Shown one piece after another: positions 29,149-46,462 of a stretch of 64,000 nt of DNA (positions within the stretch are counted from its first letter, which is position 1; the number at the start of each line of letters is the position of its first letter). Origin of the DNA: a bacterium (GTDB lineage: Bacteria > Patescibacteriota > Patescibacteriia > UBA1558 > GWA2-36-10); assembly GCA_018653315.1 (NCBI GenBank), contig JABIAL010000021.1:3029-67028 (forward strand). Reading direction: 5' to 3'. The position numbers and the translations under genes are program-made. The notes beneath the pieces were generated by a model. That model saw nothing but the letters and a program-made list of their open reading frames with translations, searched no databases and was not told the DNA's origin.

Positions 29149-29227
29149 TAGCTCGTAATTATTGATATTTTATACATAATCAGTAACACATCTATTGGGT
29201 TGCCGGTTTTTTTGTTATAATGAAAAT

Positions 29228-29818: not shown

Positions 29819-30411
29819 AAAAAATAGTTCTCACTGGCGGTCCATGTGGAGGAAAGACTACTTTTCTCGAGGCTCTAGAAAAAGAGCTTGGTGCAAATAT
29901 TATTATTGTGCCAGAAGCAGCGACTATTTTGTTGAGTGGTGGTTTTTTGGAACCGAACAAAGACATTTCTTGGTCTGAAGATTGGCAAACAGCATTTGAA
30001 TACGCTGTTTTTCATTTGCAAAAATCTCTTGAAGAAACAGCTATACTACAGGCTAAAGAAAAGGGAATCTCTGTGTTAGTTTGTGATCGAGGCTCTTTGG
30101 ACGCGGCGGTTTTTTTACCTGGAGGCTTGGGGCAAGCACAATTATTACTTAATCTTGATGTGACCAGTGAAAGATTACGATACCACGCAGTACTTCATTT
30201 AGAGTCTTTGGCAACAGCTGATTCAGATAAATATAGCTCAGCAGGTAACGGGCATCGTATTGAGTCATTAGAGCAAGCAAAGAAAATGGAATTACTCTCG
30301 CAAGAGGTTTGGTCGCAGCACAAAAATTATTTTTTTATTGACGGGCAAAGAAGTGTAGATAGTAAAATTGGAGAAGCTCTAGATTTAGTAAGAAAGATTT
30401 TAGACACGTAG
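29815..30411 (+). CDS. P-loop ATPase of the AAA_28 / NadR-like predicted ATPase family
   Basis: 198 aa with Walker A GGPCGGKTT. A 4-nt overlap with the upstream membrane gene suggests co-translation. Confidence 0.55.
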   Translation: MKKIVLTGGPCGGKTTFLEALEKELGANIIIVPEAATILLSGGFLEPNKDISWSEDWQTAFEYAVFHLQKSLEETAILQAKEKGISVLVCDRGSLDAAVFLPGGLGQAQLLLNLDVTSERLRYHAVLHLESLATADSDKYSSAGNGHRIESLEQAKKMELLSQEVWSQHKNYFFIDGQRSVDSKIGEALDLVRKILDT

Positions 30412-30476: not shown

Positions 30477-31337
30477 ATGAAAAAAGTTCGTAAAGCAATT
30501 ATTGCTGTGGCTGGTTCCGGAACAAGATTGTTGCCAGCTACTAAATCAATGCCAAAAGAAATGTTGCCCATTGTTGATAAACCAATTATTCAACTTGTAG
30601 TTGAAGAGCTGGTTGCTGGAGGGATAGAAGATATAATTTTGGTTACAAAATGGGACAAAAAACCACTCGAAGACCATTTTGATTATTCATGGGCTTTAGA
30701 ACACGATTTAGCTGAATCGGGTAAGATGGCCAAGCTAAAAGAGATTAGAAAAATTTCTGAAATGGCAAATTTTATCTATATCCGCCAAAAAGGACCCTAT
30801 GGCAATGGTACCCCTGTTTTATCTGCAGCCAGTTTAGTTCAAGATGAGCCATTTATGTATGTTTGGGGAGATGATTTAGTTAAATCAAAAACATCATTTG
30901 CCAAACAAATGATTGATGACTATAACGAAACAGGCCATTTAATGATCGGGGTACAAAAAGTGCCACGTAATCAAGTTGATAGGTATGGAATCGTTAGTAT
31001 TAAAGATAGAAAAACCATGCAATTAGACGGCATCATTGAGAAGCCAAGTATAAAAGAAGCACCTTCTCAGCTAGCTGATTTTGGTCGGATGATTTTGAAT
31101 CAAGACATCATAGAAATACTTAAGAAGACAAGATTAGGAAAAGGCAATGAATTATGGATTGTTGATGCTATCCGTGACTACATTAAAGCGGGCGGAGAGT
31201 TTTACGCTAAAGAAGTACAAGATGGAGAATGGCTAACTACTGGGGATCCATGGAATTTGTTAAAAGCGAATTTAGAATATGCAAGTGACAGAAAAGATTT
31301 AAAGACTTTATTAAAGAGGTATTTAAAAAATTTATAA
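30477..31337 (+). CDS. galU: UTP--glucose-1-phosphate uridylyltransferase
   Basis: 286 aa. AGSGTRLLPATKSMPKEMLPIVDKP N-terminal signature. Confidence 0.85.
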   Translation: MKKVRKAIIAVAGSGTRLLPATKSMPKEMLPIVDKPIIQLVVEELVAGGIEDIILVTKWDKKPLEDHFDYSWALEHDLAESGKMAKLKEIRKISEMANFIYIRQKGPYGNGTPVLSAASLVQDEPFMYVWGDDLVKSKTSFAKQMIDDYNETGHLMIGVQKVPRNQVDRYGIVSIKDRKTMQLDGIIEKPSIKEAPSQLADFGRMILNQDIIEILKKTRLGKGNELWIVDAIRDYIKAGGEFYAKEVQDGEWLTTGDPWNLLKANLEYASDRKDLKTLLKRYLKNL

Positions 31338-31340
31338 GCT

Positions 31341-32702
31341 ATGCCTAGACTGCGAATTCTTACTATTATTTTATTTGGAGTGTTCATCATGACCACTGGT
31401 TTTGGTTGTAAGCAAAGCATTACCAATAAAGAAGAGTTTAAGCCAATTTCTTTAGAGTATTGGGGAGTTTGGGATACGCCGGGGCAGATGGCTAGTGTAA
31501 TCAATGCTTATCAGGACACCCATCCAACTATTAAGGTGAGATACAAAAATTTTCGTTATGATGAGTATGAACAAAAATTATTAGAAGCAGCCTGGGAAGA
31601 CAGAGTGCCTGATTTGTTCATGATCCCTGTTTCTTGGTTACCAAAATATCAAGAGCGTTTACAGGCAATTCCAAAAAGCGTTAAAATTCCTATTTTAGAA
31701 ATGCAGGGCACTATTAAAAAAGAAGCCGTGCCAGTGTTAAAAACTATTAATAGTTTATCTTTGCGTGATATTAAAGATCGTTATGTTAGTGTTGTTTATG
31801 ATAATGTAATTAGAGAAGGAGAAATTTACGGCTTACCATATTCTGTTGATTCATTGGTTACTTTTTATAATTCAGATTTATTAACAGCTTCAAATATTCC
31901 CGAACCAATAGAAGATTTTCATGATTTAGTTGAACAGATTCAAAAAGATGGTCTTTCTAAGATAGGGACTGGCAATAGAATTATACAGGCTGGTGTAGCC
32001 ATGGGTGGCACAGATAACATTCCTCGTTTTTTTGATATCTTGTCCAGTATTATGATGCAAAATGATGTTGAGCTGAAAGGGAGTAATTTTAATCCCTTAC
32101 AAAGTAAGGACTCAACACGGTACATGGCAGAGGCAATTGGTTTTTATACAGATTTTGCTAATCCTAATAAGTCAGTATTTTCTTGGGATGATAGTTTACC
32201 AGACGCCTTTGAAATATTTACACAAGGTAAGTTAGCTTATTTTTTTGGTTATAGTTATCATGCTGACGAATTACGTAAACGAGGCGTCCAGTTTGATTGG
32301 GATATAACTAATTTTCCTAAAACCAGAGGTGCAGAGGGTGATAAATATTATAGCAATTATTGGATAAACGTTGTTCCGAAAAAATCAAAAAATAAAGACG
32401 CAGCTTGGAATTTTATTCAAAGTGCAACTAGTAAAGATTTGGTGGTTAATTATTTAGATACTAATAAAAAACCAACAGCCTTAAGAGCCTTAATAAAAGA
32501 TCAGTTAGAAGATGATGAGGTGAGAGTTTTTGCTTCACAAGTTTTAGCCGCAGATAATTGGTACAAGGGTTATGATCTTACAGCAGCAGAAATGTATATG
32601 GCAGATTTTATAGAAGACCTATTATCAGGAGAGCTTAATCTTGATGAAAGTGGTTTAGGGTTTTTGGTTCAGCGCATTCGCCGTACCTATCAAGCACGAT
32701 AA
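31341..32702 (+). CDS. ABC-type extracellular solute-binding lipoprotein (family 1, sugar/oligosaccharide type), orphan
   Basis: 453 aa. Lipobox-like TTGFGC after a signal peptide. No permease or ATPase genes are adjacent. Confidence 0.55.
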   Translation: MPRLRILTIILFGVFIMTTGFGCKQSITNKEEFKPISLEYWGVWDTPGQMASVINAYQDTHPTIKVRYKNFRYDEYEQKLLEAAWEDRVPDLFMIPVSWLPKYQERLQAIPKSVKIPILEMQGTIKKEAVPVLKTINSLSLRDIKDRYVSVVYDNVIREGEIYGLPYSVDSLVTFYNSDLLTASNIPEPIEDFHDLVEQIQKDGLSKIGTGNRIIQAGVAMGGTDNIPRFFDILSSIMMQNDVELKGSNFNPLQSKDSTRYMAEAIGFYTDFANPNKSVFSWDDSLPDAFEIFTQGKLAYFFGYSYHADELRKRGVQFDWDITNFPKTRGAEGDKYYSNYWINVVPKKSKNKDAAWNFIQSATSKDLVVNYLDTNKKPTALRALIKDQLEDDEVRVFASQVLAADNWYKGYDLTAAEMYMADFIEDLLSGELNLDESGLGFLVQRIRRTYQAR

Positions 32703-33692: not shown

Positions 33693-34043
33693 ATGTTAAA
33701 CAAAAAGAAAAATATTTTATTTACCTTGTTTTTATTGAGCGTACCTTGGTGTGTCCAAGCGGGCACGGCACTACATAATCCATTAGAGGGTAGTGCTAGT
33801 GATTTTCCAACATTAATTGGTGGTGTTATTAGAGGAATGTTGGGTGTAGTGGGGGCAGTAGCCTTAATTATGATTGTTATCGGAGGTATTACTTGGATGA
33901 CTTCATCTGGTAATGCTGATAGGGTACGCCGTGGCAAAGACACATTGGTTTGGGCGGTCATTGGTTTAACTGCTATATTTTTAAGTTACGCAGTTGTTAA
34001 TTTTATATTTGATGCCGTTGTTAGAGGTGGCTCAGGATCTTAG
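33693..34043 (+). CDS. VirB2/TrbC-like (T4SS-pilin-like) small two-TM protein, paralog 2
   Basis: 116 aa. Signal peptide, TM1, loop GGITWMTSSGNADRV, TM2. Confidence 0.5.
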   Translation: MLNKKKNILFTLFLLSVPWCVQAGTALHNPLEGSASDFPTLIGGVIRGMLGVVGAVALIMIVIGGITWMTSSGNADRVRRGKDTLVWAVIGLTAIFLSYAVVNFIFDAVVRGGSGS

Positions 34044-34044
34044 G

Positions 34045-34073
34045 TTGAATAAATGACATTTTTGTTTTATAAT
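34045..34073 (+). promoter_or_regulatory. sigma70-like promoter for paralog 3
   Basis: TTGAAT, 17-nt spacer, TATAAT (34068-34073). A strong AAGGGGGTGA Shine-Dalgarno sits before the ATG at 34115. Confidence 0.45.
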
Positions 34074-34114
34074 AATTGTATGAAATTATGTTTTTATAGA
34101 AAGGGGGTGAAAAA

Positions 34115-34462
34115 ATGAACAAAATAATTACAAGTTTATTATTGTTAGCTCCAATGGCCGCTTCAGCTGCTACCAATCCGTTTGGTGTTGATGATTTAAC
34201 ATCTACAGGCTTGGGTACACAAGATTTAAAGACAACCATTGCTAGTATTATTAATGTTGTTTTAGGATTCTTAGGAATCATCGCTACTTTAATTATTCTT
34301 TTAGGTGGTTTTAAATGGATGACCTCTCAAGGTAGTTCTGAAAAAGTAGATGAGGCTAAAAAACTTATCGGTGCTGGTGTTGTAGGATTAGTCATAGTAT
34401 TAGCAGCTTATGCTATTGCTAGATTTGTTTTGACAAATGTTTATGAGGCAACAACCGCATAA
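34115..34462 (+). CDS. VirB2/TrbC-like small two-TM protein, paralog 3
   Basis: 115 aa. Loop GGFKWMTSQGSSEKV. Confidence 0.5.
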   Translation: MNKIITSLLLLAPMAASAATNPFGVDDLTSTGLGTQDLKTTIASIINVVLGFLGIIATLIILLGGFKWMTSQGSSEKVDEAKKLIGAGVVGLVIVLAAYAIARFVLTNVYEATTA

Positions 34463-34559
34463 CAGGCTTATTATAGTCTAGACTATAGTAGGTCATGCAA
34501 GTGACCTACTAAAGTGTAGATTAAAATAGTACCGGTATAATAAATCAAAAAACAAACAG

Positions 34560-34904
34560 ATGAACAAAATAATTACAAGTTTATTATTACTAGCTCCGAT
34601 GGCCGCTTCAGCTGATCTTAGTGATCTTGGTTATGATGATTTAGATTCTGTACATTTGGGTACGCAAGATCTAAAGACAACTATTGCTAGTATTATTAAT
34701 GTAGTTTTAGGATTCTTAGGAATCATCGCTACTTTAATTATTCTTTTAGGTGGTTTTAAATGGATGACCTCTCAAGGTAGTACTGAAAAAGTAAGCGAAG
34801 CTAAAAATCTGATCGGCGCTGGTGTTGTAGGATTAGTCATAGTATTAGCAGCTTATGCTATTGCTAGATTTGTTTTACGAGAAGTTTATCAAGCAACTTA
34901 TTGA
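34560..34904 (+). CDS. VirB2/TrbC-like small two-TM protein, paralog 4 (near-identical recent duplicate of paralog 3)
   Basis: 114 aa, about 95 percent nucleotide identity to paralog 3 except for a ~50-nt segment encoding the mature N-terminus. Confidence 0.5.
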   Translation: MNKIITSLLLLAPMAASADLSDLGYDDLDSVHLGTQDLKTTIASIINVVLGFLGIIATLIILLGGFKWMTSQGSTEKVSEAKNLIGAGVVGLVIVLAAYAIARFVLREVYQATY

Positions 34905-34949
34905 TATATTTTAGCATAGTTTATATTAAGTATTTTTAACAAAATAAAC

Positions 34950-35324
34950 ATGAAACATAAAATATTTTTTACATTTTTGTTATTATTACCAATGCAAGCA
35001 GCTGCGTCAGCAGCGCAGGATGGATTAGATGCTGCCGCTGCCCAGGCTGGACTTAATACTGATCGTAGTGTTATTGATATGATTGCCATTGTGATTAATG
35101 CAATTTTGAGCTTGTTAGCAATGATTTTTATTGTGTTGATTATCTTAGGTGGTTTTCGTTGGATGACTTCAGCTGGAAATGCTACAAAGGTAGATTCTGC
35201 TAAACAGACTATATCAAATGCAGTTATTGGTTTAGTAATAGTTGTGGCTGCTTATGCTATTGCTACATTTGTATTAGGAGCAGTAGTTGGTAGTACTAGT
35301 GGCGGTGGAGTTACACAACCTTAA
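34950..35324 (+). CDS. VirB2/TrbC-like small two-TM protein, paralog 5
   Basis: 124 aa. Loop GGFRWMTSAGNATKV and a Gly/Ser-rich C-terminus. Confidence 0.5.
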   Translation: MKHKIFFTFLLLLPMQAAASAAQDGLDAAAAQAGLNTDRSVIDMIAIVINAILSLLAMIFIVLIILGGFRWMTSAGNATKVDSAKQTISNAVIGLVIVVAAYAIATFVLGAVVGSTSGGGVTQP

Positions 35325-38120: not shown

Positions 38121-38323
38121 ATCAAAATTTGATTTTTTTGACTGATTAATTAATGTAAATTACTATAGCAAACTTATCTTATTACGGATCATCATTTTCG
38201 TCAAGAAGCTTTTTCTATGTTTTATTAATGATTGATTTTTTCAGGGTTTTTTGCTAAGATGATAATAATGTACAGGCATAAATAGATAATATTTATGCTT
38301 TTAAATTGTTAAGCTTCCAATTT

Positions 38324-39031
38324 ATGAGCGGACATTCTAAATGGTCAACAATTAAACGCGCTAAAGATATTAAAGATGCCAAGCGTAGTAATTTATTTAC
38401 CAAGCTTTCTAAAAATATTGCTGTGGCGGCTCGTGGTAATCCTGATGTAGATACTAATTTTAAATTACGCATGGCCATTGATAAGGCTAAGGGCTTAAGT
38501 ATGCCCAGGGATAATATTGAGCGAGCTGTAAAAAAAGCTGCTGGTGTTAGCGGCGAAGGCGCAATTGATAGTTTATTATATGAAGCTTATGGTCCAGAAG
38601 GAGTGGCAATTATCATTGATGTTTTAACAGATAATAAAAACCGCACAGTTTCTAATATTAAACACATCATCACTAAGTGTGGTGGTAATTTAGGTAATAG
38701 TGGCAGTGTATTATGGATGTTTGAAATGAAGGGTGAAATTGCATTACTTAAGCCAGAGCTAGATGATGATCAAGAATTGGCTATTATAGAAGCCGGAGCA
38801 GAAGATATCATTAGGCATGATCAGCAAATAATAATAATTACCAATAAAGATGAGCTGTCTAAGCTTAAAGATAAATTGCAAACCTTAGATCTAGAAACTA
38901 GTAGTGCTGACATTGTTTATTTAGCCAAAGAAAAAGTACCAGTAAAAGATGAAGAAAGGCTTTTGAAGATTTTAGAGGCACTAGACGATGACGATGACGT
39001 TAATAATGTGTATACTAATGCTGACATCTAA
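38324..39031 (+). CDS. yebC: YebC/PmpR family DNA-binding transcriptional regulator
   Basis: Start placed at the conserved MSGHSKWSTIKRAKD N-terminus. The track ORF starts 18 nt upstream. Confidence 0.85.
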   Translation: MSGHSKWSTIKRAKDIKDAKRSNLFTKLSKNIAVAARGNPDVDTNFKLRMAIDKAKGLSMPRDNIERAVKKAAGVSGEGAIDSLLYEAYGPEGVAIIIDVLTDNKNRTVSNIKHIITKCGGNLGNSGSVLWMFEMKGEIALLKPELDDDQELAIIEAGAEDIIRHDQQIIIITNKDELSKLKDKLQTLDLETSSADIVYLAKEKVPVKDEERLLKILEALDDDDDVNNVYTNADI

Positions 39032-39546
39032 TGAGTATTTCGGCAACAAAATTAAATACAGATGAAATTATTCTCGGTATAGACCCAGGTGTAGCTGACA
39101 CTGGTTTTGGAGTAATTAAAAAAAATGGCAATAAGCTTACTTTTATAGAAGCTGGTAGCATTCAAACAGCTAAAACAGAAGACCTACCGACTCGTCTGGA
39201 AATTATTTATCAGACCATGCAAGAATTATTGTTTAAACACAAGCCAGACTTAGTAGCAGTAGAAAAATTATATTTTGCTCGTAATGTGACTACTGCCTTA
39301 GATGTTGGTCAAGCACGTGGTGTGGTTATCCTAGCTATTAAAAAACATAAAATAGATATTTTAGAATTTACGCCTTTACAGATAAAACAAGCAGTGACCG
39401 GTAGTGGTAATGCAGACAAAAGACAAGTTGGTCTGATGGTTAAGGCGATTTTACATATAGCAGAGGTTCCCAAGCCAGATGATGCGGCTGATGCGGTGGC
39501 AGCGGCTATCTGTGGGGCCTTCTTTAATAAGAAATTAGTAAAATAA
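39031..39546 (+). CDS. ruvC: crossover junction endodeoxyribonuclease RuvC
   Basis: 171 aa with ILGIDPG N-terminus and RuvC catalytic acidic residues. Sits in the classic yebC-ruvC pairing. Confidence 0.9.
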   Translation: MSISATKLNTDEIILGIDPGVADTGFGVIKKNGNKLTFIEAGSIQTAKTEDLPTRLEIIYQTMQELLFKHKPDLVAVEKLYFARNVTTALDVGQARGVVILAIKKHKIDILEFTPLQIKQAVTGSGNADKRQVGLMVKAILHIAEVPKPDDAADAVAAAICGAFFNKKLVK

Positions 39547-39549
39547 AAT

Positions 39550-41034
39550 ATGAAACCATTAAAAATTGTTTCAGTTTCAGCTGAGCTAGATCCTTTTTCT
39601 AAAACAGGTGGATTAGGTGATGTAGCTCGTTCATTGCCTAAAAGTTTACATCGTTTAGGGCACAATGTTATTGCTATTACGCCTTTGTATAGCAAGCTTA
39701 TTGATAGAAAGAAGCATAAGCTAGAAAAAATTTATAGTGACGTAAAATTACAAATTGATAAAGAAAATACCGTAAGCGTTAGTTACTACCGTGGTCAATT
39801 AATGCCTGGATTGTCTGTTTATTTTGTGCGTTGCGATAAATATTTTGGTCGTAAAAAGTGGCCGTATGTATCAGACAATGAGGGTGCTAGGTTTTATTTA
39901 TTCGATGTAGCTGCTCTTAAATTAATATCTTTATTAAAATTTAAAGCTGACATTATTCATTGTCATGATTGGCACACGGGGCTTATTCCTTATTTAAAGA
40001 AAAAGCGTTTTAATCGTAGTAAAACCTTGGCTAATACAGCGACTGTTTTTACTATTCATAATTTAACTTTTCAGGCTGGTATAAATTGGTGGGAGATTCC
40101 AGTAAAATATCGAGACAAAGGAAAGGGTTCTTTACCTTTATTTAAAGATCGAAAAATAAATTATACCAATTTTGCTAAACGAGGTATTTTATATGCTGAT
40201 ATTATCAATACTGTATCTGAAACTTATGCTGATGAGATAATCAAAAAGAATTTTGGTCAAGATTTACATCGTATTCTAGTTAATCGTAAACATAAACTTT
40301 TTGGTGTGGTAAATGGTATTGATTATAATAATTATAATCCTCAGACTGACCCAGGATTAAAGAAAAGATACTCAGTAGATACCATACATCGTAAGATTGT
40401 TAACAAGCGTCATTTACAAAAAGTATTTAAGTTGCCAGTTGATGATCGTATGCCGATTATAGGTTTTACTTCTCGTATTGCCGAACAAAAAGGGTTTGAT
40501 TTATTGCTGGATATTTTGTCTACAGTTTTATTACGTGATGTGCAGGTAATTATTATGGGCGATGGAGACAAAAATCTAATTGAGCGGATTAATAAGATGA
40601 AAAAGAAATTTCCTGGTAAAATATGTCAGTTACCATTTTATGTAAATCGTAAATTAGAATCTTTGGTTTATGCGGGTGGTGATTTTTTATTATTACCGTC
40701 TAGATTCGAACCCTGTGGTACTACTCAGATGATTGCTTTTCGTTATGGTTGTGTGCCAATTGTGCGTTCTACTGGTGGTCTGTCAGACACAGTGGTTAAT
40801 TTTGATCCTATAGATTACAAAAAAGGCAATGGCTTCACTTTTAAAAATTATAATTCCCAAGAATTATTAGTAGCCATTACTCGGGCTCTAGAAACATATA
40901 AATATAAAAACACTTGGAAAGATTTAATGCGTCGGGGGATGAGGGTTTCATTTTCTTGGGATTTACCGGCTCAAAGATATTTGGATTTATACAAAAAAGC
41001 TAAAAAATTTAAACATGAAGAAGAAAAGTCATGA
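39550..41034 (+). CDS. glgA: glycogen/starch synthase (GT5, ADP-glucose type)
   Basis: 494 aa. KTGGLGDV N-terminal motif and GT-B C-terminal E-x7-E region. Confidence 0.85.
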   Translation: MKPLKIVSVSAELDPFSKTGGLGDVARSLPKSLHRLGHNVIAITPLYSKLIDRKKHKLEKIYSDVKLQIDKENTVSVSYYRGQLMPGLSVYFVRCDKYFGRKKWPYVSDNEGARFYLFDVAALKLISLLKFKADIIHCHDWHTGLIPYLKKKRFNRSKTLANTATVFTIHNLTFQAGINWWEIPVKYRDKGKGSLPLFKDRKINYTNFAKRGILYADIINTVSETYADEIIKKNFGQDLHRILVNRKHKLFGVVNGIDYNNYNPQTDPGLKKRYSVDTIHRKIVNKRHLQKVFKLPVDDRMPIIGFTSRIAEQKGFDLLLDILSTVLLRDVQVIIMGDGDKNLIERINKMKKKFPGKICQLPFYVNRKLESLVYAGGDFLLLPSRFEPCGTTQMIAFRYGCVPIVRSTGGLSDTVVNFDPIDYKKGNGFTFKNYNSQELLVAITRALETYKYKNTWKDLMRRGMRVSFSWDLPAQRYLDLYKKAKKFKHEEEKS

Positions 41035-42188
41035 AAAAAATAAATTGGGTTAATTTTTTACACATCTATCAGCCACCTTGGCAGGACAAGGGGGTTATCG
41101 AACAGGCTTCTAGTGAAAGCTATGAGTATTTATTTGGTTTATTAGATAAGTACCCAAAGTTTATAACCACCTTAAACATTACTGGATCTTTAGTGGAGCA
41201 ATTAGAGGAATTTCGTCCGGACTTGTTAAAGCTTTTGCAGGCTTTGATAAAAAAAGGAAAAGTAGAATTAACCGGTTCAGCTAAATATCACGCTTTATTA
41301 CCATTGTTACCAACGGAAGAGATTAAAAGGCAAATTTTACTTAACGAAGAAATTTTAAGTAAATATTTTTTTAAAAAACCAGTTGGTTTTTATATGCCAG
41401 AAATGGCTTATAGTAAAAAGGTAGCCGAGATTGTAAAAGACTTTGGTTATCAATGGATCGTTTTAGATGCTATCAACCTTGATTCAAAAAAAGAAGATGA
41501 TATTTTATATGAAATCAAAAATGTTGGTTTAAAAGTTATTTTTAGAGATCGTAAGATTTCTAAAAGCTACCCAGCTGAAGTAATTTATAAAAAATTAAAA
41601 CAAAAAAACAAAAAAACAGAGACAATCATCACAGGAACAGACGGCGAAATGTATGGACATTTTCATAAAGACTGGCAAGGACATTTAGAAAAGATTTTAC
41701 AAGATGATCACTTAAGCATTCAAAGCGTCAGTCAATATATTAATAATTTAACAGATAATAAAGTTAAAAAAGTTAAATTATTAACAGCTTCTTGGGAAAC
41801 CACAGCAAAAGAGTTAAAAAAAGGCGTAGCCTTTGCTTTATGGCAAGACCCAAAAAATAAAATTCATCGAGATTTATGGAAGCTAACAAAATTAGCTATT
41901 AAAATAGTAAATCAAAATACTAAAGATTCAAGTTGGAAATGGGCTCGTTGGCATTTAGACAGGGGGCTAGCTTCTTGTACTTTTTGGTGGGCTTCAGCCA
42001 CTAAGCCCTCAGATTTTTCTCCTTTGACTTGGAATCCAGATATGATAGATAATGGTAGTGAGGAGTTAGTGCGTAGTGTTAGGTCTTTACATAAAATAAA
42101 GACCAGTCAAAGATTAAAAGCGGAGCGTCTGTATATTCAAATCAAGAAAAACACCTGGGAAACACATTGGCGTAAATATCATAAATAA
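41031..42188 (+). CDS. glycoside hydrolase family 57-like protein
   Basis: 385 aa. N-terminal NFLHIYQPP, resembling the GH57 HQP block. Shorter than typical GH57 branching enzymes. Confidence 0.45.
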   Translation: MKKINWVNFLHIYQPPWQDKGVIEQASSESYEYLFGLLDKYPKFITTLNITGSLVEQLEEFRPDLLKLLQALIKKGKVELTGSAKYHALLPLLPTEEIKRQILLNEEILSKYFFKKPVGFYMPEMAYSKKVAEIVKDFGYQWIVLDAINLDSKKEDDILYEIKNVGLKVIFRDRKISKSYPAEVIYKKLKQKNKKTETIITGTDGEMYGHFHKDWQGHLEKILQDDHLSIQSVSQYINNLTDNKVKKVKLLTASWETTAKELKKGVAFALWQDPKNKIHRDLWKLTKLAIKIVNQNTKDSSWKWARWHLDRGLASCTFWWASATKPSDFSPLTWNPDMIDNGSEELVRSVRSLHKIKTSQRLKAERLYIQIKKNTWETHWRKYHK

Positions 42189-42207
42189 ATTTTTAATATA
42201 AAATACC

Positions 42208-43278
42208 ATGCAGAAATCAGAAGTTTCAAAGAAGGATAAAGAACAAATTGTTAAATTAGCCGACCAAGATTTTGTTACTAGAATATTGAATAAAAGGTTA
42301 GCAGAGTATTATCCAGATTTTAGTAAAATTAAGAAAATTAAATTAACGCCTTATAAACATCATATTGGTAAGACTGGCGTTGTTTTTGTGGTTGGCTATG
42401 AAATAGATTATCTTAGTACAGAGGCTAAAAATAAATCTTTACACGTTTTTGCCACCGGTCATTCAGATAATTCTCGAAAGGCAGCTTTTGAAAAGTTAAC
42501 ATTTTTGTATAACAATGGTTTTAATCAAGGAAAGTTTCAAGTTACTCGCCCTTTATTTTTTGTAGATGAGCAAAAAGGTTTTTTTTATGAAGCATCAGAA
42601 GGGAAGAGTTTATTTGCTCATTTTCAAGAAGATGATAGTTTAGATTTAAATAATGCACTCAAATTAACAGCGGGCTGGGCGCATGAGCTACATCATTTGC
42701 CAGTTGATCATAACTTTGCTTGGCCAAAATTTTCAGTTGCTAACATGATCCCATCGCCAAAACATTTTTTGCCAGATCTAATGAAGCATGATAAAGATTT
42801 TGGGCAGCAAGTAAAAAAAGTTGTGTCTGATATAAAAAATTGGGAAAAAGAGTTTAATAAATCACTAGAGCCTCATTTGATTTATGGTGATTATCATCCA
42901 GAAAACGTAATTATAGAAAGTTTAGTCACCGACCATTTGCGGATGATTGATTTTACCGATGTGGCTATAGGCGATCCAATGACAGATTTGGGTACATTTT
43001 TGCAACAGGTAGATTTTATGGGTCATCGGTTTTTTTCTCGTGATAAAATAAACCAAATAAAAAAATATTTTGTAGAAGCGTATTTTAATAAAGAGTTATC
43101 TGAGATTGAGGCAAATTTTTTTCAAAGAATGAATCTCTATCAAGCATGGACAGCATTACGCACGGCAGTATTTTTATTTTATATGCACAAAGATGATTCA
43201 GTGCATGCTTTATTTAAGGAAGTTGAAAAGTATTTAGAATTGATTAAAGAAGAAAAGAAAGAAATAAATTTACAATAA
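42208..43278 (+). CDS. APH/CotS-fold phosphotransferase (kinase), substrate unknown
   Basis: 356 aa with Brenner-like YGDYHPENVI and DFTDVAIGDP (DxD) motifs. Confidence 0.5.
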   Translation: MQKSEVSKKDKEQIVKLADQDFVTRILNKRLAEYYPDFSKIKKIKLTPYKHHIGKTGVVFVVGYEIDYLSTEAKNKSLHVFATGHSDNSRKAAFEKLTFLYNNGFNQGKFQVTRPLFFVDEQKGFFYEASEGKSLFAHFQEDDSLDLNNALKLTAGWAHELHHLPVDHNFAWPKFSVANMIPSPKHFLPDLMKHDKDFGQQVKKVVSDIKNWEKEFNKSLEPHLIYGDYHPENVIIESLVTDHLRMIDFTDVAIGDPMTDLGTFLQQVDFMGHRFFSRDKINQIKKYFVEAYFNKELSEIEANFFQRMNLYQAWTALRTAVFLFYMHKDDSVHALFKEVEKYLELIKEEKKEINLQ

Positions 43279-43281
43279 GAT

Positions 43282-43872
43282 ATGTCACACAAAATAATTT
43301 TTGAAGGAGCAGAATTAACTGGTAAGAGTTGGCTAATGAGTCAGGTCTATGACCACATTGAGCCAAAATATAACAGTGGCAATAAAATTTTAGATGGTTG
43401 TCATTGGTTTAATTGCGATGTCGGTATTTTTGGTACAAAATATGGTCAAGTAGCTTTGCAAAAGTATCTAGAATTGACCGAAGAATTAAAAGAGGCCAAT
43501 GTAATGCTAGAAAAGTTTCATCTTAGCGAAGCAGTTTACCAAAAATTATACAATAATCAAAATTTCCTGCCTGCCGGCAGACAAGGTGATTTTTCAGCTA
43601 TAGAAAATCGTTTACAAAAATTAAACACTAAAATAATCTTGGTTACTTTTCCAGAAGATGAAAAAATTATACAGGCTCGTTTACAAGATCGGCTAAATCT
43701 TTACCCCCATTATGAAAAAATAGCTCAAGCTCCAACAGACTACATAAAACAGCAACGGCTATTTAAAGAACTAATAAAGCAAAGTAAGCTAGAATATCTA
43801 ATTATAGAAACAAATAAATTACCAGATGAGAGTCTGGTTGATAAAATATTGCAATTTATTGGTGAAAAATAA
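43282..43872 (+). CDS. small P-loop protein, possible nucleoside/nucleotide-kinase fold, hypothetical
   Basis: 196 aa with Walker A-like GAELTGKS. Carries an in-frame copy of the palindromic repeat (encoding FLPAGRQ). Confidence 0.35.
   Translation: MSHKIIFEGAELTGKSWLMSQVYDHIEPKYNSGNKILDGCHWFNCDVGIFGTKYGQVALQKYLELTEELKEANVMLEKFHLSEAVYQKLYNNQNFLPAGRQGDFSAIENRLQKLNTKIILVTFPEDEKIIQARLQDRLNLYPHYEKIAQAPTDYIKQQRLFKELIKQSKLEYLIIETNKLPDESLVDKILQFIGEK
43566..43586. repeat. copy C of the palindromic repeat family (CCTGCCTGCCGGCAGaCAaGG), inside a CDS
   Basis: Left arm and core are perfect; the right arm is degenerate. It is in frame within the 43282-43872 CDS. Confidence 0.55.
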
Positions 43873-43984
43873 TAGCTATTTATAAAAACGATTCTTCTTT
43901 AATAAGGGTCGTTTTTTGATTTTTTAATGTTTTTGATATGTGATATAATACTAGTGTTTAGTTAATATTTGAATATAAATAAAA

Positions 43985-45466
43985 ATGCAAAATAAAAATA
44001 AATTGTCCGTATTATTCGTTGGTGCAGAGTTGGCTCCGCTAGTTAAAGTAGGCGGTCTAGGTGATGTCATGGGCGCTTTACCAAAAAGTCTAGTTAAACA
44101 AGGTGTAAATGTTAGTATGATTATACCTTTTTATGGAGTTATTGATGCAAAGAAATTTAAAACCAAATTAGTTAAAAAAAATATTAAGTTTAACATTGAT
44201 GGCCAACCAGCTAAATTTGATTTATACCAGACTTTTTTGCCGGGTACCAAAATCATAATTTTTTTAGTTAAACATAAATTATTTATAAATAAGGATATTT
44301 ATGTCGGGGGACGAAGGTATATGAAAGGCAGAGTTTATTCTCGATCCATTGGTGATATTGAAAGATTTGTTTTTTTCAGCAAGGCTGTCGCTGAAACTAT
44401 TAGATCAATGAAATGGAAAATAGATGTAGTTCATGCCCATGATTGGCATACCGCTTTGTTACCAACTTTTATTGATGAATATAGTTTGGAAGATAAAAAT
44501 TTTTCTAACATCAAAACTTTATTTACGATTCATAATTTAGCTAATCAAGGAATTTCTAGTTTAGACATAGTAGATTATGGAGGCCTACATCATGATTTAA
44601 CTCCAGCCTTAATGGAGGATTATTATGATAAAGATGGTGATAAAATTGATATGATGAAAATAGGTATTTTATCAGCTGATCTGATAAATACTGTTAGCCC
44701 AAGTTATGCCAAAGAAATTTTAACTAAAGAATACGGAGAAAAATTGGAAACTTATTTACTACGTCGTAAAAAGCATTTATTTGGCATTGTAAACGGTATT
44801 GATTTGGATCTATTTAATCCTAACAAGGATAAGTTTATCTATAAAAAGTATAATGCCAAAAATAGAAAAATAAATAAGCAATTTAATAAACAAGCTTTGC
44901 AGGCTGAAATGAAATTACCAAAAGAGGATGTGCCAGTGTTAGGTTTAGTGAGTCGCTTGGTTAATCAAAAAGGTTTAGATATTTTAGTGCCGGCTTTAGA
45001 TAAATTATTAGCTAAACAAGATGTGCAGGTTATTATATTAGGTACTGGACAGCCTGAGCATGAACAGGCTTTCAAAAAATTGGCTAAAAAATATCCTACA
45101 AAATTATCTGCAAATATTACTTTTAATATTGCCATGGCTCAAAAAATATACGCTGGGAGTGATTTTTTCTTAATGCCATCTGCATTTGAGCCTTGTGGTT
45201 TAGGACAGATGATGGCTATGCGCTACGGTACATTACCATTAGTCAGGGCCACTGGTGGTCTTAAGGATACAGTGAAACATAGTATTACTGGAATAGTTTT
45301 TAAAAAATATACTCAAACAGCCATGAGAAAAGCACTTGAGCAAGCGATTAGACTTTATAAAAATAAAGTGAAGTTTAATAAGATGGTGTCCACTGCTATG
45401 CGACAAGATTTTTCTTGGGACCAGTCAGCCAAAGAGTATATTAAGCTTTACAAAAAATTAATTTAA
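43985..45466 (+). CDS. glgA: glycogen/starch synthase paralog (GT5)
   Basis: 493 aa. KVGGLGDV motif. Divergent from the first copy. Confidence 0.85.
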   Translation: MQNKNKLSVLFVGAELAPLVKVGGLGDVMGALPKSLVKQGVNVSMIIPFYGVIDAKKFKTKLVKKNIKFNIDGQPAKFDLYQTFLPGTKIIIFLVKHKLFINKDIYVGGRRYMKGRVYSRSIGDIERFVFFSKAVAETIRSMKWKIDVVHAHDWHTALLPTFIDEYSLEDKNFSNIKTLFTIHNLANQGISSLDIVDYGGLHHDLTPALMEDYYDKDGDKIDMMKIGILSADLINTVSPSYAKEILTKEYGEKLETYLLRRKKHLFGIVNGIDLDLFNPNKDKFIYKKYNAKNRKINKQFNKQALQAEMKLPKEDVPVLGLVSRLVNQKGLDILVPALDKLLAKQDVQVIILGTGQPEHEQAFKKLAKKYPTKLSANITFNIAMAQKIYAGSDFFLMPSAFEPCGLGQMMAMRYGTLPLVRATGGLKDTVKHSITGIVFKKYTQTAMRKALEQAIRLYKNKVKFNKMVSTAMRQDFSWDQSAKEYIKLYKKLI

Positions 45467-45470
45467 ATAT

Positions 45471-46397
45471 ATGCCAAAATCAGAAATTAGAAAAGATTAT
45501 ATTCAGGAGAAGTATGTTATTATTGCTCCAAAACGTGGTAAAAGACCACATGATACAATCAAACCCAAGAAATATCATAAACCTTTGACAACTTGTGTTT
45601 TTTGTCCAGAATCTCTGCAAAAGACCAAGAGCTTATACCGGGTAGGTGGTAAGAATAATTGGAGTTTAAATGTTATTCCTAATAAATTTCCAGCCGTATC
45701 TTTAGATAATCCTAAAGCCTACGGACAACAAGAAGTAGTTGTTGAATCATCTGATCATACTAAGGAACTAGAGGATTTGTCGGTGACTCATATTGCTAAT
45801 TTATTGACAGCTTATCAAGAAAGAACGCGAGCTATTTCTCGTAATAAGAAAATTGAATATATTTTAATTTTTAAAAATGATGGTGGTGTAGCTGGGGCTA
45901 GTTTACAGCATGCTCATTCCCAAATTTTTGCTACTAAATTTTTACCACCTCATTTATTTGATAAATCACAACGACAGCAGGCATATAAATTAGAGCATGG
46001 TCACTGTGTTTACTGTGACGTGATTGCTAAAGAGTCTAAAAGTCCACGTTTAGTGTATAAAGATAAAAACATCATTGCTTTTACGCCATATGCTTCAACA
46101 TTTAATTATGAGATTTGGATCATGCCATTGAAACACAGAGATAATATTACAGAGTTAACTGTGGCTGAAAAGAAATCTTGGGCTAAAATTTTAAAACATG
46201 TTTTAATTAAGATTGGCTTGTTAGATTTACCTTATAATTTTTATTTTCATCAAGTGATTAATGATAATGACCAGCATTTATATATGAAGGTAGTGCCACG
46301 GGGTTCTGTTTGGGCTGGAGTAGAGATCGGATCAGGATTAATTATCAATCCAATTTTACCAGAAGACGCGGCTGAATTTTATAGGCAAGGATTGTAA
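45471..46397 (+). CDS. GalT-like HIT-family nucleotidyltransferase (hexose-1-phosphate uridylyl/adenylyl-transferase or NDP-glucose phosphorylase-like)
   Basis: 308 aa. CVFCPE zinc-knuckle-like N-terminus and HAHSQ (HxHxQ) active-site motif. Confidence 0.6.
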   Translation: MPKSEIRKDYIQEKYVIIAPKRGKRPHDTIKPKKYHKPLTTCVFCPESLQKTKSLYRVGGKNNWSLNVIPNKFPAVSLDNPKAYGQQEVVVESSDHTKELEDLSVTHIANLLTAYQERTRAISRNKKIEYILIFKNDGGVAGASLQHAHSQIFATKFLPPHLFDKSQRQQAYKLEHGHCVYCDVIAKESKSPRLVYKDKNIIAFTPYASTFNYEIWIMPLKHRDNITELTVAEKKSWAKILKHVLIKIGLLDLPYNFYFHQVINDNDQHLYMKVVPRGSVWAGVEIGSGLIINPILPEDAAEFYRQGL

Positions 46398-46426
46398 TTA
46401 ACACTTAAGACATTTTGTAAAAATAA

Positions 46427-46449
46427 AAACCCAGCTTTAAAGCTGGGTT
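46427..46449. terminator. bidirectional terminator between the glucan cluster and tyrS
   Basis: AAAACCCAGCTTTAAAGCTGGGTTTTTA, a perfect palindrome flanked by an A-run and a T-run. Confidence 0.7.
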
Positions 46450-46462
46450 TTTATAGTTTGGA

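Follow-up and report, generated by a model that had tools for sequence, protein, structure and literature searches.

The locus described here raises the question of how a glycogen-like polymer can be made or reworked by a gene cluster that encodes two glycogen synthases but has neither an ADP-glucose pyrophosphorylase (GlgC) nor a GH13 branching enzyme in its surroundings. The cluster occupies positions 39550-46397 of the window, which is the whole 64-kb stretch of DNA analysed. It consists of six closely spaced open reading frames (ORFs) on the forward strand, all of which were confirmed at their coordinates. These genes and the elements around them are as follows.

30477..31337, forward strand: GalU-like UTP--glucose-1-phosphate uridylyltransferase (PF00483)
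38306..39031, forward strand: yebC, TACO1/YebC family (ORF; PF20772/PF01709 on an identical contig)
39031..39546, forward strand: ruvC (ORF; PF02075)
39550..41034, forward strand: glgA1, GT5 synthase of 494 aa (PF08323, PF00534, TIGR02095)
41031..42188, forward strand: GH57 enzyme of 385 aa (PF03065), overlapping glgA1 by 4 nt
42208..43278, forward strand: APH/ELK-fold kinase of 356 aa (PF01636)
43282..43872, forward strand: P-loop kinase-like protein of 196 aa (Walker A motif, AF2 fold)
43884..43916, forward strand: terminator-like hairpin and T-run (folding energy)
43941..43949, forward strand: extended -10 promoter-like element TGATATAAT (consensus match only)
43985..45466, forward strand: glgA2, GT5 synthase of 493 aa (PF08323, TIGR02095)
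45471..46397, forward strand: GalT-like HIT enzyme of 308 aa (PF01087, PF02744, PF16285), 4 nt after glgA2
46423..46454, unstranded: palindromic hairpin, perfect 14-bp stem with an A-run and a T-run at its flanks

An earlier description made from the letters alone (the sequence-only reading) presented the six genes as a consecutive same-strand unit directly downstream of yebC and ruvC, and this picture holds. The junctions between the genes are, in order, -4, +19, +3, +112 and +4 nt, and the ruvC stop codon lies 3 nt before glgA1. The Pfam and NCBIfam matches of the cluster proteins agree with the families named in that reading. YebC is a context gene and not an α-glucan enzyme, and is probably co-transcribed with the cluster; ruvC is a syntenic context gene. 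Two elements lie in the 112-nt spacer: the terminator-like hairpin, with a folding energy of -11 kcal/mol (z = -3.3), and, 35 nt before the start codon of glgA2, an extended -10 element that is perfect but a consensus match only. Because of these two elements, the six-gene unit probably comprises two transcripts. Unit 1 would run from yebC and ruvC through glgA1, the GH57 gene and the APH kinase gene to the P-loop kinase gene, and unit 2 would consist of glgA2 and the gene of the GalT-like enzyme. The palindrome that had been proposed to end the cluster has a folding energy of -19.6 kcal/mol (z = -4.6; none of 200 shuffled sequences was equally stable). It separates the GalT-like gene from tyrS, which runs convergently, and is likely a bidirectional terminator for both.

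The two synthases are 39% identical to each other and 33-34% identical to E. coli GlgA. GlgA1 matches PF08323 (4.8e-62) and PF00534 and scores 480 bits with TIGR02095, which has a cut-off of 328; GlgA2 matches PF08323 (2.6e-64) and scores 526 bits with the same model. The motif SKTGGLGDV of GlgA1 reads VKVGGLGDV in GlgA2. Of 77 GlgA1 orthologs, 75-77 keep the counterparts of E. coli K15, H161, R300, K305 and E377, and among 51 GlgA2 orthologs the catalytic residues do not vary. Both GT5 synthases retain every catalytic residue and are catalytically intact. The donor specificity of GT5 enzymes is not readable from sequence.

Like the E. coli glgBXCAP operon (GlgC-GlgA-GlgB), the cluster is operon-like and encodes GT5 synthases of the ADP-glucose type. 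However, it has two divergent synthases, and its additional genes encode a short GH57 enzyme, the two kinases (APH and P-loop) and the GalT-like HIT enzyme; GlgC, GH13 GlgB, GlgX and GlgP are missing from the window and from 1.3 Mb of related flanks. The search for missing genes covered the 64-kb window and the 10-kb flanks of related loci (1.3 Mb). Tblastn with E. coli GlgC, GlgB, GlgP/MalP, GlgX and MalQ found none of them in the window and 1.30 Mb of related loci, and the 30 other long ORFs scanned in the window contain no candidate for glgC, glgB, glgP, pgm, galK or galE. The earlier remark that glgC and a GH13 branching enzyme are missing is thus borne out over this range. The GalU-like gene, also noticed before, is 8.2 kb upstream of the cluster and encodes the only NDP-sugar pyrophosphorylase found within the window. 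The protein matches PF00483 (1e-29) and scores 279 bits with TIGR01099, just below the cut-off of 326.8, and only 25-42 bits with glgC models. Its gene has the same relative position in two related loci, L004 and L008, where it is 85-88% identical. The GalU-like enzyme is a possible source of UDP-glucose, and given its presence UDP-glucose could feed the synthases directly.

Another answer to the question is that the cluster belongs to an ordinary glycogen locus embedded in a syntenic housekeeping region, and that other parts of the genome encode GlgC, the branching enzyme and the phosphorylase. The GH57 enzyme would then be an amylase, and the kinases and the GalT-like protein would be peripheral, e.g. 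an ADP-glucose scavenger. Indeed, the genome should have roughly 0.8-1 Mb (relatives' contigs are 842 kb and 1.04 Mb), of which the window shows only 64 kb. The comparison of related loci, for which 79 kinase-bearing loci were analysed out of 80 kept, bears on this explanation in both directions. The yebC-ruvC-glgA1-GH57-APH core is syntenic in about 80 species of Patescibacteria, and the kinase is present in at least 256 species according to a genome scan. In the window's clade an upstream yebC, ruvC, and glgA1 and GH57 genes 5' of the kinase are found in all 22 loci. Besides, tyrS and a PBP gene are also syntenic there, although these two genes, as well as yebC and ruvC, are clearly unrelated to glucan metabolism. 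Since the entire neighbourhood is syntenic, gene adjacency within this clade is partly phylogenetic inertia. The P-loop gene is present in 14 of 20 window-clade loci and absent from the other six, which also fits an ordinary locus. In the distant clade, however, downstream synteny is lost, tyrS being kept in one of 29 loci, whereas yebC, ruvC, glgA1 and GH57 are found in 37, 38, 39 and 38 of 40 loci, respectively, so that the glgA1-GH57-APH order survives in 38-39 of them. Such an arrangement is far more than chance would produce, given that the gene order repeats in about 80 species-level genomes. The tight junctions, where genes overlap or are 3-19 nt apart, argue in the same direction.

GlgA2 is encoded in 20 of 20 window-clade loci, each time adjoined by the GalT-like gene, and in 20 of 29 distant-clade loci. 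The GalT-like gene is within 10 kb in only four of the 29 distant-clade loci. Other lineages contain the variant clusters GlgA-GH57-GH57-APH-PHP-GlgA2-GalT-ROK, GH15-GlgA-GH57-APH-GT4-GT4-GalT-ROK and GT4 x3-APH-GT4-x-GalT-ROK. In these lineages the GalT-like gene follows a GT5 or, mostly, a GT4 gene, often together with a ROK kinase, and loci L033, L035 and L072 also keep the connection with a glycosyltransferase. Thus the GalT/glycosyltransferase link survives rearrangement. Furthermore, no other product of the cluster is as conserved as the GalT-like protein, whose median identity across the clade is 78% compared to 51% for tyrS and 64% for ruvC, so it exceeds its housekeeping neighbours. 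Both observations count against a peripheral role, and the ordinary-locus explanation is quite unlikely. Related clusters also contain degradative genes, namely for GH15, for an additional GH57 enzyme and for a hydrolase of the GDE_C type, and these support a role of the cluster in turnover plus synthesis. The cluster serves for making and reworking a glycogen-like polymer and is conserved in many very small bacteria of the candidate phyla radiation (CPR), rather than being specific to one genome.

The GH57 protein matches PF03065 (1.4e-36). Its closest match in the Protein Data Bank (PDB) is the 4-α-glucanotransferase of Thermococcus litoralis (1K1W; 6.7e-15), which aligns over residues 1-245 and corresponds to the catalytic (β/α)7 domain. 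The nucleophile and the acid/base of the latter, E123 and D214, align with E124 and D204 at a similar spacing, and both residues are invariant in 77 orthologs, so the enzyme is predicted to be active. At 385 aa compared to 659 aa in 1K1W, the CPR protein lacks the C-terminal domains or has in their place a short helical stretch with many invariant tryptophans. The possibility of a branching enzyme, raised in the sequence-only reading, failed. The GH57 branching enzymes of T. kodakarensis, T. thermophilus and P. horikoshii share the family and the context of glycogen synthesis, but they span 418-1184 aa and only about 70 of their residues align. The catalytic residues are 80 positions apart in the CPR enzyme and 191 in the one published branching-enzyme pair compared (E191/D382). 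A Pfam search found no DUF1957 domain, and the NCBIfam branching-enzyme models give 40-44 bits against cut-offs of 920-1000. Branching is not assigned to the protein for these reasons, and its architecture is of the short amylase/4-α-glucanotransferase type.

The APH kinase matches PF01636 (1.5e-9), and all 120 of its 120 homologs are from CPR bacteria. The invariant residues are D228, H230, P231 and N233 of the GDxHPEN loop and D248 of the IDFTD motif; the AF2 model has a pLDDT of 95, and the enzyme is predicted to be active. Foldseek gives TM scores of only 0.5-0.65 to Rv3168, APH(2''), ethanolamine kinase and PsiK, and a profile search of the PDB matched the ACAD11 kinase domain and APHs. 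An antibiotic phosphotransferase, which had been named as a case against the glucan reading, is not what was found: the NCBIfam resistance APHs score 17-18 against cut-offs of 600-640. The protein represents a Patescibacteria-restricted APH/ELK-fold family that is a universal member of the core. Maltokinase (Pep2/Mak) of the TreS-Pep2-GlgE pathway has an APH fold as well and likewise works in an α-glucan context. One could imagine, therefore, a route resembling that of actinobacteria, in which the kinase makes maltose-1-phosphate and the GH57 enzyme or one of the GlgA proteins uses this compound as a maltosyl donor; in the CPR loci the kinase always lies beside a retaining, α-glucan-active GH57 enzyme. 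This route is highly improbable. The suggested identity with Pep2 found no support, as no Mak chain was matched in a single-sequence search of the PDB, in the profile search at E<=1 (which matched neither NahK nor MtnK) or among the top 50 Foldseek matches. When E. coli GlgB and GlgX served as tblastn queries, no GH13-type gene, TreS- or GlgE-like, appeared in any flank. Sugar-phosphate donors are not known to be used by any GH57 enzyme.

The P-loop protein has the Walker A sequence GAELTGKS and no Pfam or NCBIfam match even at E<=10. The family, which has only 102 clusters among 1.84 billion representatives, has an invariant Walker A (FEGxELxGKS), the sequence DGCHWFNCDVGxxGT and residues R133, D136 and R137. 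According to the AF2 model (pLDDT 92.7), the protein has the dNK/thymidylate-kinase/adenylate-kinase fold. Its top structural matches are YorR (3kb2/2axp; TM 0.64-0.72), dTMP kinases and archaeal adenylate kinases, and its remote relatives match Thymidylate_kin, dNK, CPT and ADK. This small, highly conserved, CPR-restricted family is predicted to be active.

The GalT-like protein bears most directly on the source of the donor. With its three Pfam matches, an HAHSQ motif and a CxxC zinc site, it is a class I GalT-type HIT nucleotidyltransferase. The top-scoring solved homolog is At5g18200 of Arabidopsis (EC 2.7.7.36; PDB 1Z84, 2H39), matched over its full length at 1.2e-45, followed by P. aerophilum GalT (PaGalT; 6K5Z) at 1.8e-33 and E. 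coli GalT at 8.6e-20; in bits, At5g18200 scores 159 and E. coli GalT 74. The Arabidopsis protein acts as an ADP-glucose phosphorylase rather than as a GalT, and its Km for ADP-glucose is 7 uM (PMC6329318, PMC4136846). The plant and CPR proteins share the HxHxQ nucleotidyl-histidine motif, the zinc site, an AGAS motif before the catalytic histidines and a C-terminal GxEIGxGxxINPxxPED loop. The latter is GVEIGSGLIINPxxPED in CPR proteins and GFEIGTGCYINPVFPED in the plant enzyme, whereas PaGalT and E. coli GalT, which have the same fold and catalytic motif, differ in this sugar/acceptor loop. Residues conserved in CPR are common only with At5g18200 at 25 positions and only with PaGalT at 19. On the other hand, the plant enzyme has two insertions, is cytosolic, and lacks both a known physiological role and linkage to a synthase gene. 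The proposal of an ADP-glucose phosphorylase therefore stands as far as the top-scoring homolog is concerned, but is not decisive because the archaeal GalT is equally identical (35.0% compared to 34.8% for At5g18200; 26.2% for E. coli GalT). The protein is a candidate ADP-glucose:phosphate adenylyltransferase.

The same ambiguity would allow a Leloir-like salvage of hexoses beside glycogen synthesis. The APH kinase would then phosphorylate hexoses at the anomeric position, as a hexose 1-kinase that replaces GalK without being homologous to it, and the released glucose-1-phosphate or UDP-sugars would feed the synthases and the cell envelope. The GalT-like protein passes the galT model TIGR00209, albeit marginally (106.5 bits, cut-off 102.1), PaGalT is an active enzyme, the GalU-like gene is near, and the kinase and GalT-like genes occur together in every variant cluster seen. 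A precedent is the bifidobacterial GNB/LNB operon, where the anomeric kinase NahK, an APH-like protein, acts together with a GalT-type enzyme (bioRxiv 10.64898/2026.09.13.751320). That enzyme, GalT2, is monomeric and of class II, however, and the CPR cluster lacks a phosphorylase or epimerase partner. The cycle needs an epimerase, yet tblastn with E. coli GalK, GalE and GalM found none in 1.36 Mb (window and related flanks), so the Leloir enzyme with galK or galE nearby, the other case named against the glucan reading, did not materialize. The kinase does not specifically resemble NahK, Mak or MtnK, the GalT-like gene is tied to a glucan synthase or GT4 gene and not to the kinase, and the substrate loop is of the At5g18200 type. 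Such salvage is unlikely.

The reading that we favour, and to which we give about an even chance, is that the cluster is a vertically conserved α-glucan (glycogen-type) storage and turnover module whose HIT enzyme connects NDP-glucose with glucose-1-phosphate. GlgA1 and GlgA2 would extend α-1,4 chains with NDP-glucose as the donor, and the GH57 enzyme would remodel the chains, either cleaving them or acting by transglycosylation. The GalT-like enzyme, working through a covalent nucleotidyl-histidine intermediate, would interconvert NDP-glucose and glucose-1-phosphate without ATP or pyrophosphate. Like the plant homolog, it would most probably catalyse ADP-glucose + Pi <-> glucose-1-phosphate + ADP. 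Coupled to GlgA2, ADP would be catalytic and the sum would be the reversible α-glucan phosphorylase reaction; the pair could therefore stand in for GlgC in supply and/or for GlgP in mobilisation. Unless another driving force acts, the ratios of Pi to glucose-1-phosphate in cells shift glucose-1-phosphate + glucan <-> glucan + Pi towards breakdown. Net synthesis by this route therefore needs a high supply of glucose-1-phosphate. The assignments of the two kinases are the weakest. The APH-fold enzyme is most likely a sugar kinase that would feed the glucose-1-phosphate/NDP-glucose pool, possibly by acting at the anomeric carbon, and for the P-loop protein the most likely role is that of a nucleotide kinase which would adjust the AMP/ADP pool. 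With a GalT-like enzyme in place of ADP-glucose pyrophosphorylase, and with two additional kinases, these bacteria may possess a cheaper, non-canonical pathway of glucan storage.

The six genes of the cluster, which directly follow yebC and ruvC, were all found where the sequence-only reading had placed them, and all on the same strand:

39550-41034, + strand, open reading frame of GlgA1, a GT5 synthase
41031-42188, + strand, open reading frame of the GH57 protein, 385 residues
42208-43278, + strand, open reading frame of the APH-fold kinase
43282-43872, + strand, open reading frame of the Walker-A (P-loop) protein, 196 residues
43985-45466, + strand, open reading frame of GlgA2, a GT5 synthase
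45471-46397, + strand, open reading frame of the GalT-like protein, a class I GalT-type HIT enzyme

The gap between the end of ruvC and glgA1 is 3 nt, and the successive junctions between the six open reading frames are -4, +19, +3, +112 and +4 nt. The tyrS gene lies downstream of the GalT-like gene in convergent orientation. The palindromic terminator noted at the end of the unit is a perfect 14-bp palindrome at positions 46423-46454 (-19.6 kcal/mol, z = -4.6). The 112-nt spacer 5' of glgA2 contains a second hairpin (43884-43916, z = -3.3), followed by a T-run, as well as a sequence at positions 43941-43949, TGATATAAT, that perfectly matches the extended -10 element. Because of these signals the locus is read as two predicted transcription units, one extending from yebC to the P-loop gene and the other comprising glgA2 and the GalT-like gene. 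The G+C content of the window is about 33%. An Rfam search for riboswitches or other RNA elements returned tRNAs only.

The kinase alignment was used to scan one genome per species and recovered at least 256 species, from which 80 loci were kept. The loci with a kinase at least 40% identical to that of the window (26 loci) constitute the window's clade, and 53 loci form a distant clade; the counts that follow refer to loci with enough flanking sequence. Every such locus of the window's clade has yebC, ruvC, glgA1 and the GH57 gene (22/22) as well as glgA2 and the GalT-like gene (20/20), and 14/20 have the P-loop gene. The core of the distant clade consists of glgA1 (39/40) and the GH57 gene (38/40). 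Downstream the gene content varies. In 16 of 29 loci the next gene after that of the kinase codes for a TrpH-like PHP phosphoesterase, and glgA2 is found in 20, the P-loop gene in 6, the GalT-like gene in 4 and a GDE_C-type hydrolase gene in 3 of the 29. The PHP-domain protein (288 residues, TrpH/pAp-phosphatase-like) is encoded directly after the APH kinase in, for example, loci L003, L032, L036, L040 and L048 (11111-11977 in the latter), the slot that the P-loop gene occupies in the window's clade. Such a pairing of kinase and phosphatase could hint at a phosphorylated intermediate. Another distant-clade locus, L072, has a second APH-like gene and two GT4 genes, with a further GT4 gene separating the GalT-like gene from glgA2.

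Median identity to the window proteins in the window's clade
GalT-like protein: 78%
GlgA1: 68%
GlgA2, P-loop protein, YebC and RuvC: 64%
GH57 protein: 60%
TyrS: 51%
APH kinase: 49%

By these values the GalT-like enzyme is under stronger constraint than its housekeeping neighbors. All homologs of the lineage-specific cluster genes come from Patescibacteria/CPR MAGs, and the kinase family is, as judged from its homologs, CPR-restricted. Many of the loci (L004, L007, L010 and others) have a kinase, a synthase and neighboring genes typical of Patescibacteria, and the MAG records they come from bear the title 'uncultured Gammaproteobacteria bacterium' (binchicken/SRP co-assemblies), which looks like a placeholder or an incorrect taxonomic label. 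The MAG records annotate the cluster piecemeal, as glycogen synthase, phosphotransferase, hypothetical protein and galactose-1-phosphate uridylyltransferase.

Rearranged clusters were found in other CPR lineages by way of GalT-like homologs with 66-70% identity. Three variants have the gene orders ruvC-GH15-GlgA-GH57-APH-GT4-GT4-GalT-ROK kinase, GT4-GT4-GT4-APH-GT4-x-GalT-ROK and GlgA-GH57-GH57-APH-PHP-GlgA2-GalT-ROK. Since all three retain it, the persistent module consists of one or more glycosyltransferases, the APH kinase and the GalT-like enzyme, often accompanied by a ROK sugar kinase. Degradative genes (GH15, GDE_C-type, an extra GH57) are sometimes added. The persistence of the module in rearranged clusters, together with these additions, argues for a functional link between the members that goes beyond mere inertia, and for a role in turnover as well as synthesis.

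In the variants of the GH15-GlgA-GH57-APH and GlgA-GH57-GH57-APH types, dnaN-dnaA lies just downstream of the glucan cluster. In the window dnaA (4956-6323) and dnaN (6594-7688) are adjacent, and the GC skew starts at -0.11 over the first 2 kb, averages out near zero between 2 and 8 kb, and is positive from about 8 to about 50 kb. The adjacency and the skew suggest a replication origin near the start of the window. Four tandem small open reading frames (114-124 residues) at positions 33693-35324 of the + strand have PF18895 T4SS_pilin / TrbC matches on the identical contig, and relatives carry the same array of paralogs upstream of the DUF2079 gene (L002).

The sequence-only reading had noted that glgC and a GH13 branching enzyme are missing from the neighborhood, and this was borne out: E. 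coli GlgC and GlgB gave no tblastn match in the window and 83 related loci (1.30 Mb). Neither did E. coli GlgP, MalP, GlgX or MalQ match the window or the 1.30 Mb of related loci; GlgA was the only glycogen query that did. A rival reading takes this for an ordinary glycogen locus whose neighboring genes are unrelated to the synthases and whose partners glgC, glgB and glgP are encoded away from it. The local scope of these searches leaves room for such genes at other sites, and the retention of kinase and GalT-like genes in rearranged clusters argues against unrelated neighbors; we consider this reading unlikely.

Among 30 other open reading frames of the window, a Pfam/NCBIfam scan identified one GalU-like nucleotidyltransferase (30477-31337; TIGR01099 279 bits, cut-off 327) and no other sugar-nucleotide enzymes. 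The GalU-like protein is 85-88% identical in L004 and L008, the two window-clade loci that reach it, which are the top identities of any window protein; in the distant-clade locus L072 it is 45% identical. Three nucleotides after its gene (region 30477-32702) is a gene for a carbohydrate ABC transporter solute-binding protein with weak similarity to MalE/GanS, and no permease gene is evident beside it. Upstream of galU (28033-30411) are genes for a methyltransferase that resembles cyclopropane-fatty-acyl-phospholipid synthase (PF02353, 5.7e-84), for a membrane protein with DUF6498 and for a P-loop protein of the AAA_28 type.

Both synthases match PF08323 (Glyco_transf_5 N-domain) and PF00534 (Glycos_transf_1 C-domain), and their GT5 classification is upheld by TIGR02095, with 480 bits for GlgA1 and 526 bits for GlgA2 against a cut-off of 328.45. 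The two share 39% identity, and with E. coli GlgA each shares 33-34%. Both paralogs have the K-x-G-G-L motif and are identical at the positions that correspond to E. coli K15, H161, R300, K305 and E377, which we take to have catalytic roles; these positions are kept in 75-77 of 77 GlgA1 orthologs and in every one of the 51 GlgA2 orthologs. Activity is expected of both enzymes. At the position of E. coli GlgA Y355, 49 of 51 GlgA2 proteins have F, and GlgA1 proteins have H, F or Y, a pattern that does not discriminate between ADP-glucose and UDP-glucose as donor.

The GH57 protein is a genuine family member (PF03065, 1.4e-36). Its presumed nucleophile E124 (CSR3) and acid/base D204 (CSR4) align to E123/D214, the catalytic pair of the T. 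litoralis 4-alpha-glucanotransferase, and both are invariant in 77 orthologs. The branching-enzyme side of the family, which had also been considered, failed every test. GH57 branching enzymes have three domains, including a DUF1957 C-domain, and 418-1184 residues, with strands beta5-beta6 and a flexible loop between CSR III and CSR IV; the one catalytic pair quoted, E191/D382, is 191 residues apart (PMC9291813). The cluster protein, in contrast, has 385 residues and a spacing of 80, no DUF1957 match even at E<=10, and an alignment to branching-enzyme structures of no more than about 70 residues. The branching-enzyme equivalogs NF041133 and NF041566 score 44 bits (cut-off 1000) and 40 bits (920). 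Membership in the branching-enzyme family was therefore rejected for lack of DUF1957, short length, wrong residue spacing and tiny equivalog scores, which leaves the cluster with no gene assigned to branching; that the protein branches glucans with another architecture is conceivable. The GH57 gene is missing between glgA1 and the kinase gene in three loci (L033, L037 and L072), and hence is dispensable in some lineages.

The kinase has the APH/ELK fold, and an alignment of 52 homologs shows its catalytic loop (GDxHPEN, IDFTD) to be intact. Its AF2 model has a pLDDT of 95, yet Foldseek gave a TM of just 0.5-0.65 to PDB entries (Rv3168, APH(2''), ethanolamine kinase, PsiK). A profile search of the PDB at E<=1 produced 57 matches, to the ACAD11 kinase domain and APHs; maltokinase, NahK and MTR kinase were not among them. 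The suggestion that the kinase is a maltokinase (Pep2/Mak) did not hold up: no Mak appeared in phmmer (E<=1), in the 57 profile matches or in the Foldseek top 50. As a specific identity it was rejected, generic APH/ELK relatives alone being recovered in the PDB sequence, profile and Foldseek searches. An antibiotic-resistance APH, the counter-case to a sugar kinase, was rejected as well, the NCBIfam resistance models giving 17-18 bits against 600-640 (APH(2'')-Ie/IVa, 18.4 bits vs 600; APH(7'')-Ia, 17.5 bits vs 640). A maltose-1-phosphate (GlgE-like) route would fit the APH fold of the kinase and would need a maltokinase, which these searches did not find. GH13-type genes, the class of the maltokinase partners TreS and GlgE, gave no tblastn match to E. 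coli GlgB and GlgX in the window and 83 related loci. We regard that route as highly improbable.

The GalT-like protein is assigned to the class I GalT-type HIT enzymes by its sequence signatures. It matches both PF01087 and PF02744, has HAHSQ at residues 147-151 (the HxHxQ active site), and shares the CxxC zinc site, C42 and C45, with all three reference enzymes: At5g18200 of Arabidopsis, PaGalT of P. aerophilum and E. coli GalT. The best 120 of 4393 matches in a homolog search are all from CPR, at 66% identity or higher. At5g18200 acts as an ADP-glucose phosphorylase rather than as a GalT (PMC6329318, PMC4136846). It is the top match in the PDB (1.2e-45, full length; PaGalT 1.8e-33, E. coli GalT 8.6e-20) and in HMMER bits (159, compared to 119 and 74). 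Identity is 34.8% to At5g18200, 35.0% to PaGalT and 26.2% to E. coli GalT, the first two being tied. The counts of residues conserved in CPR, 25 common to At5g18200 alone and 19 to PaGalT alone, are too close to separate the two. The C-terminal loop reads GVEIGSGLIINPxxPED in CPR and GFEIGTGCYINPVFPED in At5g18200, and is different in both PaGalT and E. coli GalT; in the latter it contacts the sugar or acceptor. Thus of the check proposed earlier, GalT versus ADP-glucose phosphorylase, the score and the loop point to the phosphorylase and the identities and residue counts do not discriminate; the assignment as an ADP-glucose phosphorylase, although suggested by these comparisons, is not decisive.

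A Leloir class I GalT has the same active-site motif, zinc site and N- and C-terminal domains, but the cluster enzyme lacks galK and galE in its neighborhood. GalK, GalE and GalM, whose proximity would have favored a galactose enzyme, were not found with E. coli tblastn queries in the window and 83 loci (about 1.36 Mb). The galT equivalog TIGR00209 is narrowly exceeded (106.5 bits vs 102.1), and NF008724 is far from reached (118.8 bits vs 448). A Leloir-like salvage pair, in which a true GalT acting on GalU-derived UDP-glucose works with the APH kinase, would accommodate the first of these scores and the GalU-like gene; given the lack of galE in these flanks and the At5g18200-type loop, it seems an unlikely explanation.

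The P-loop protein has no Pfam or NCBIfam match, even at E<=10. Its Walker A motif is GAELTGKS, and its AF2 model (pLDDT 92.7) has a dNK/thymidylate-kinase/adenylate-kinase-like fold. Foldseek matched it to B. subtilis YorR (top match, TM 0.64-0.72), dTMP kinases and adenylate kinases, with probability 1.00 and TM 0.5-0.72 overall; YorR was also the sole match of a profile search (E = 0.0014). The family comprises 102 clusters among 1.84 billion representatives, is conserved at 54-86% identity, and has remote relatives that bear Thymidylate_kin, dNK, CPT or ADK signatures. The model places the protein in the NMP/deoxynucleoside kinase superfamily, as a predicted member outside the curated thymidylate kinase, dNK and adenylate kinase families. 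The window protein contains a seven-residue insertion, LPAGRQG, at residues ~95-101 (43566-43585), absent in 41/41 aligned homologs. It coincides with a G+C-rich palindrome, CTTGTCTGCCGGCAGGCAGG (- strand), flagged by the terminator scan, and there the confidence of the model is lowest (pLDDT 69-82). Paralogy with the AAA_28 protein (29815-30411) was rejected, as no similarity was found.

The mechanism favored here is markedly uncertain. As read from sequence, GlgA1 and GlgA2 would elongate alpha-1,4 chains from an NDP-glucose donor. From its family, the GH57 protein would remodel the chains by a retaining double displacement, and the HIT enzyme would interconvert NDP-glucose and glucose-1-phosphate via a nucleotidyl-histidine intermediate. 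The most probable reaction of the HIT enzyme is ADP-glucose + Pi <-> glucose-1-phosphate + ADP. Four observations suggest it: the closest match is At5g18200, the loop is of the At5g18200 type, the gene constantly adjoins those of glucan synthases, and Leloir partners are lacking nearby. Coupled to GlgA2, ADP would be catalytic and the sum would be glucose-1-phosphate + glucan(n) <-> glucan(n+1) + Pi, the reaction of a phosphorylase. The phosphorylase equilibrium is near unity, and at normal Pi/glucose-1-phosphate ratios the reaction runs in the direction of breakdown. A substitute for GlgP is for this reason at least as plausible a role for the GlgA2-HIT pair as a substitute for GlgC.

Net synthesis through the pair would need a strong supply of glucose-1-phosphate, which an anomeric sugar kinase would provide. 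Several APH-fold sugar kinases, namely NahK, maltokinase and MTR kinase, phosphorylate C1. In bifidobacteria the NahK gene adjoins that of a GalT-type enzyme (bioRxiv 10.64898/2026.09.13.751320). By analogy to these enzymes and this arrangement, the CPR kinase is an attractive but unproven candidate for an anomeric sugar kinase. A role in adjusting adenine nucleotides is conceivable for the P-loop protein and is the least secure part of the mechanism.

Put together, these steps would constitute a minimal storage-glucan cycle of Patescibacteria which, at an expense of one ATP per glucose, dispenses with GlgC, PGM, a GH13 branching enzyme and glycogen phosphorylase. The kinase would phosphorylate glucose (or maltose) at C1, the HIT enzyme would convert glucose-1-phosphate and ADP to ADP-glucose and Pi, and GlgA would polymerize the glucose and return ADP. 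Run backwards, GlgA2 and the HIT enzyme would be a two-protein alpha-glucan phosphorylase with catalytic ADP, and the short GH57 protein would represent a new chain-remodeling or branching activity. In its entirety this cycle is tentative and rather unlikely to be correct, and a route through the HIT enzyme that needs neither GlgC nor GlgP is an inference that presumes their absence from the whole genome.

The cluster itself is real, widespread and unusual in composition, although its parts belong to known superfamilies. In the literature searched no paper was found that describes it, or that links ADP-glucose phosphorylase or a GalT-like enzyme to bacterial glycogen synthases, and glycogen genes of Patescibacteria were found only in passing mention; a 2024 review on the alpha-glucan enzymes of prokaryotes is, in the part covered, silent on that link and on those genes. 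The cluster provides a defined genomic context for three uncharacterized families, the short GH57, the APH-fold kinase and the P-loop kinase, whose substrates are directly testable. We know of no function assigned to ADP-glucose phosphorylase, an activity known since the 1960s. If the HIT enzyme links glucose-1-phosphate and ADP-glucose without the spending of ATP and pyrophosphate, this would be the first physiological role for that enzyme, and would give a GlgC-independent entry into, or a GlgP-independent exit from, glycogen. A large fraction of the diversity of bacteria belongs to Patescibacteria, which have genomes of around 1 Mb and are believed to have very little energy to spare. That the storage-glucan module has remained syntenic over at least dozens of species-level lineages indicates that polymer storage matters to them.
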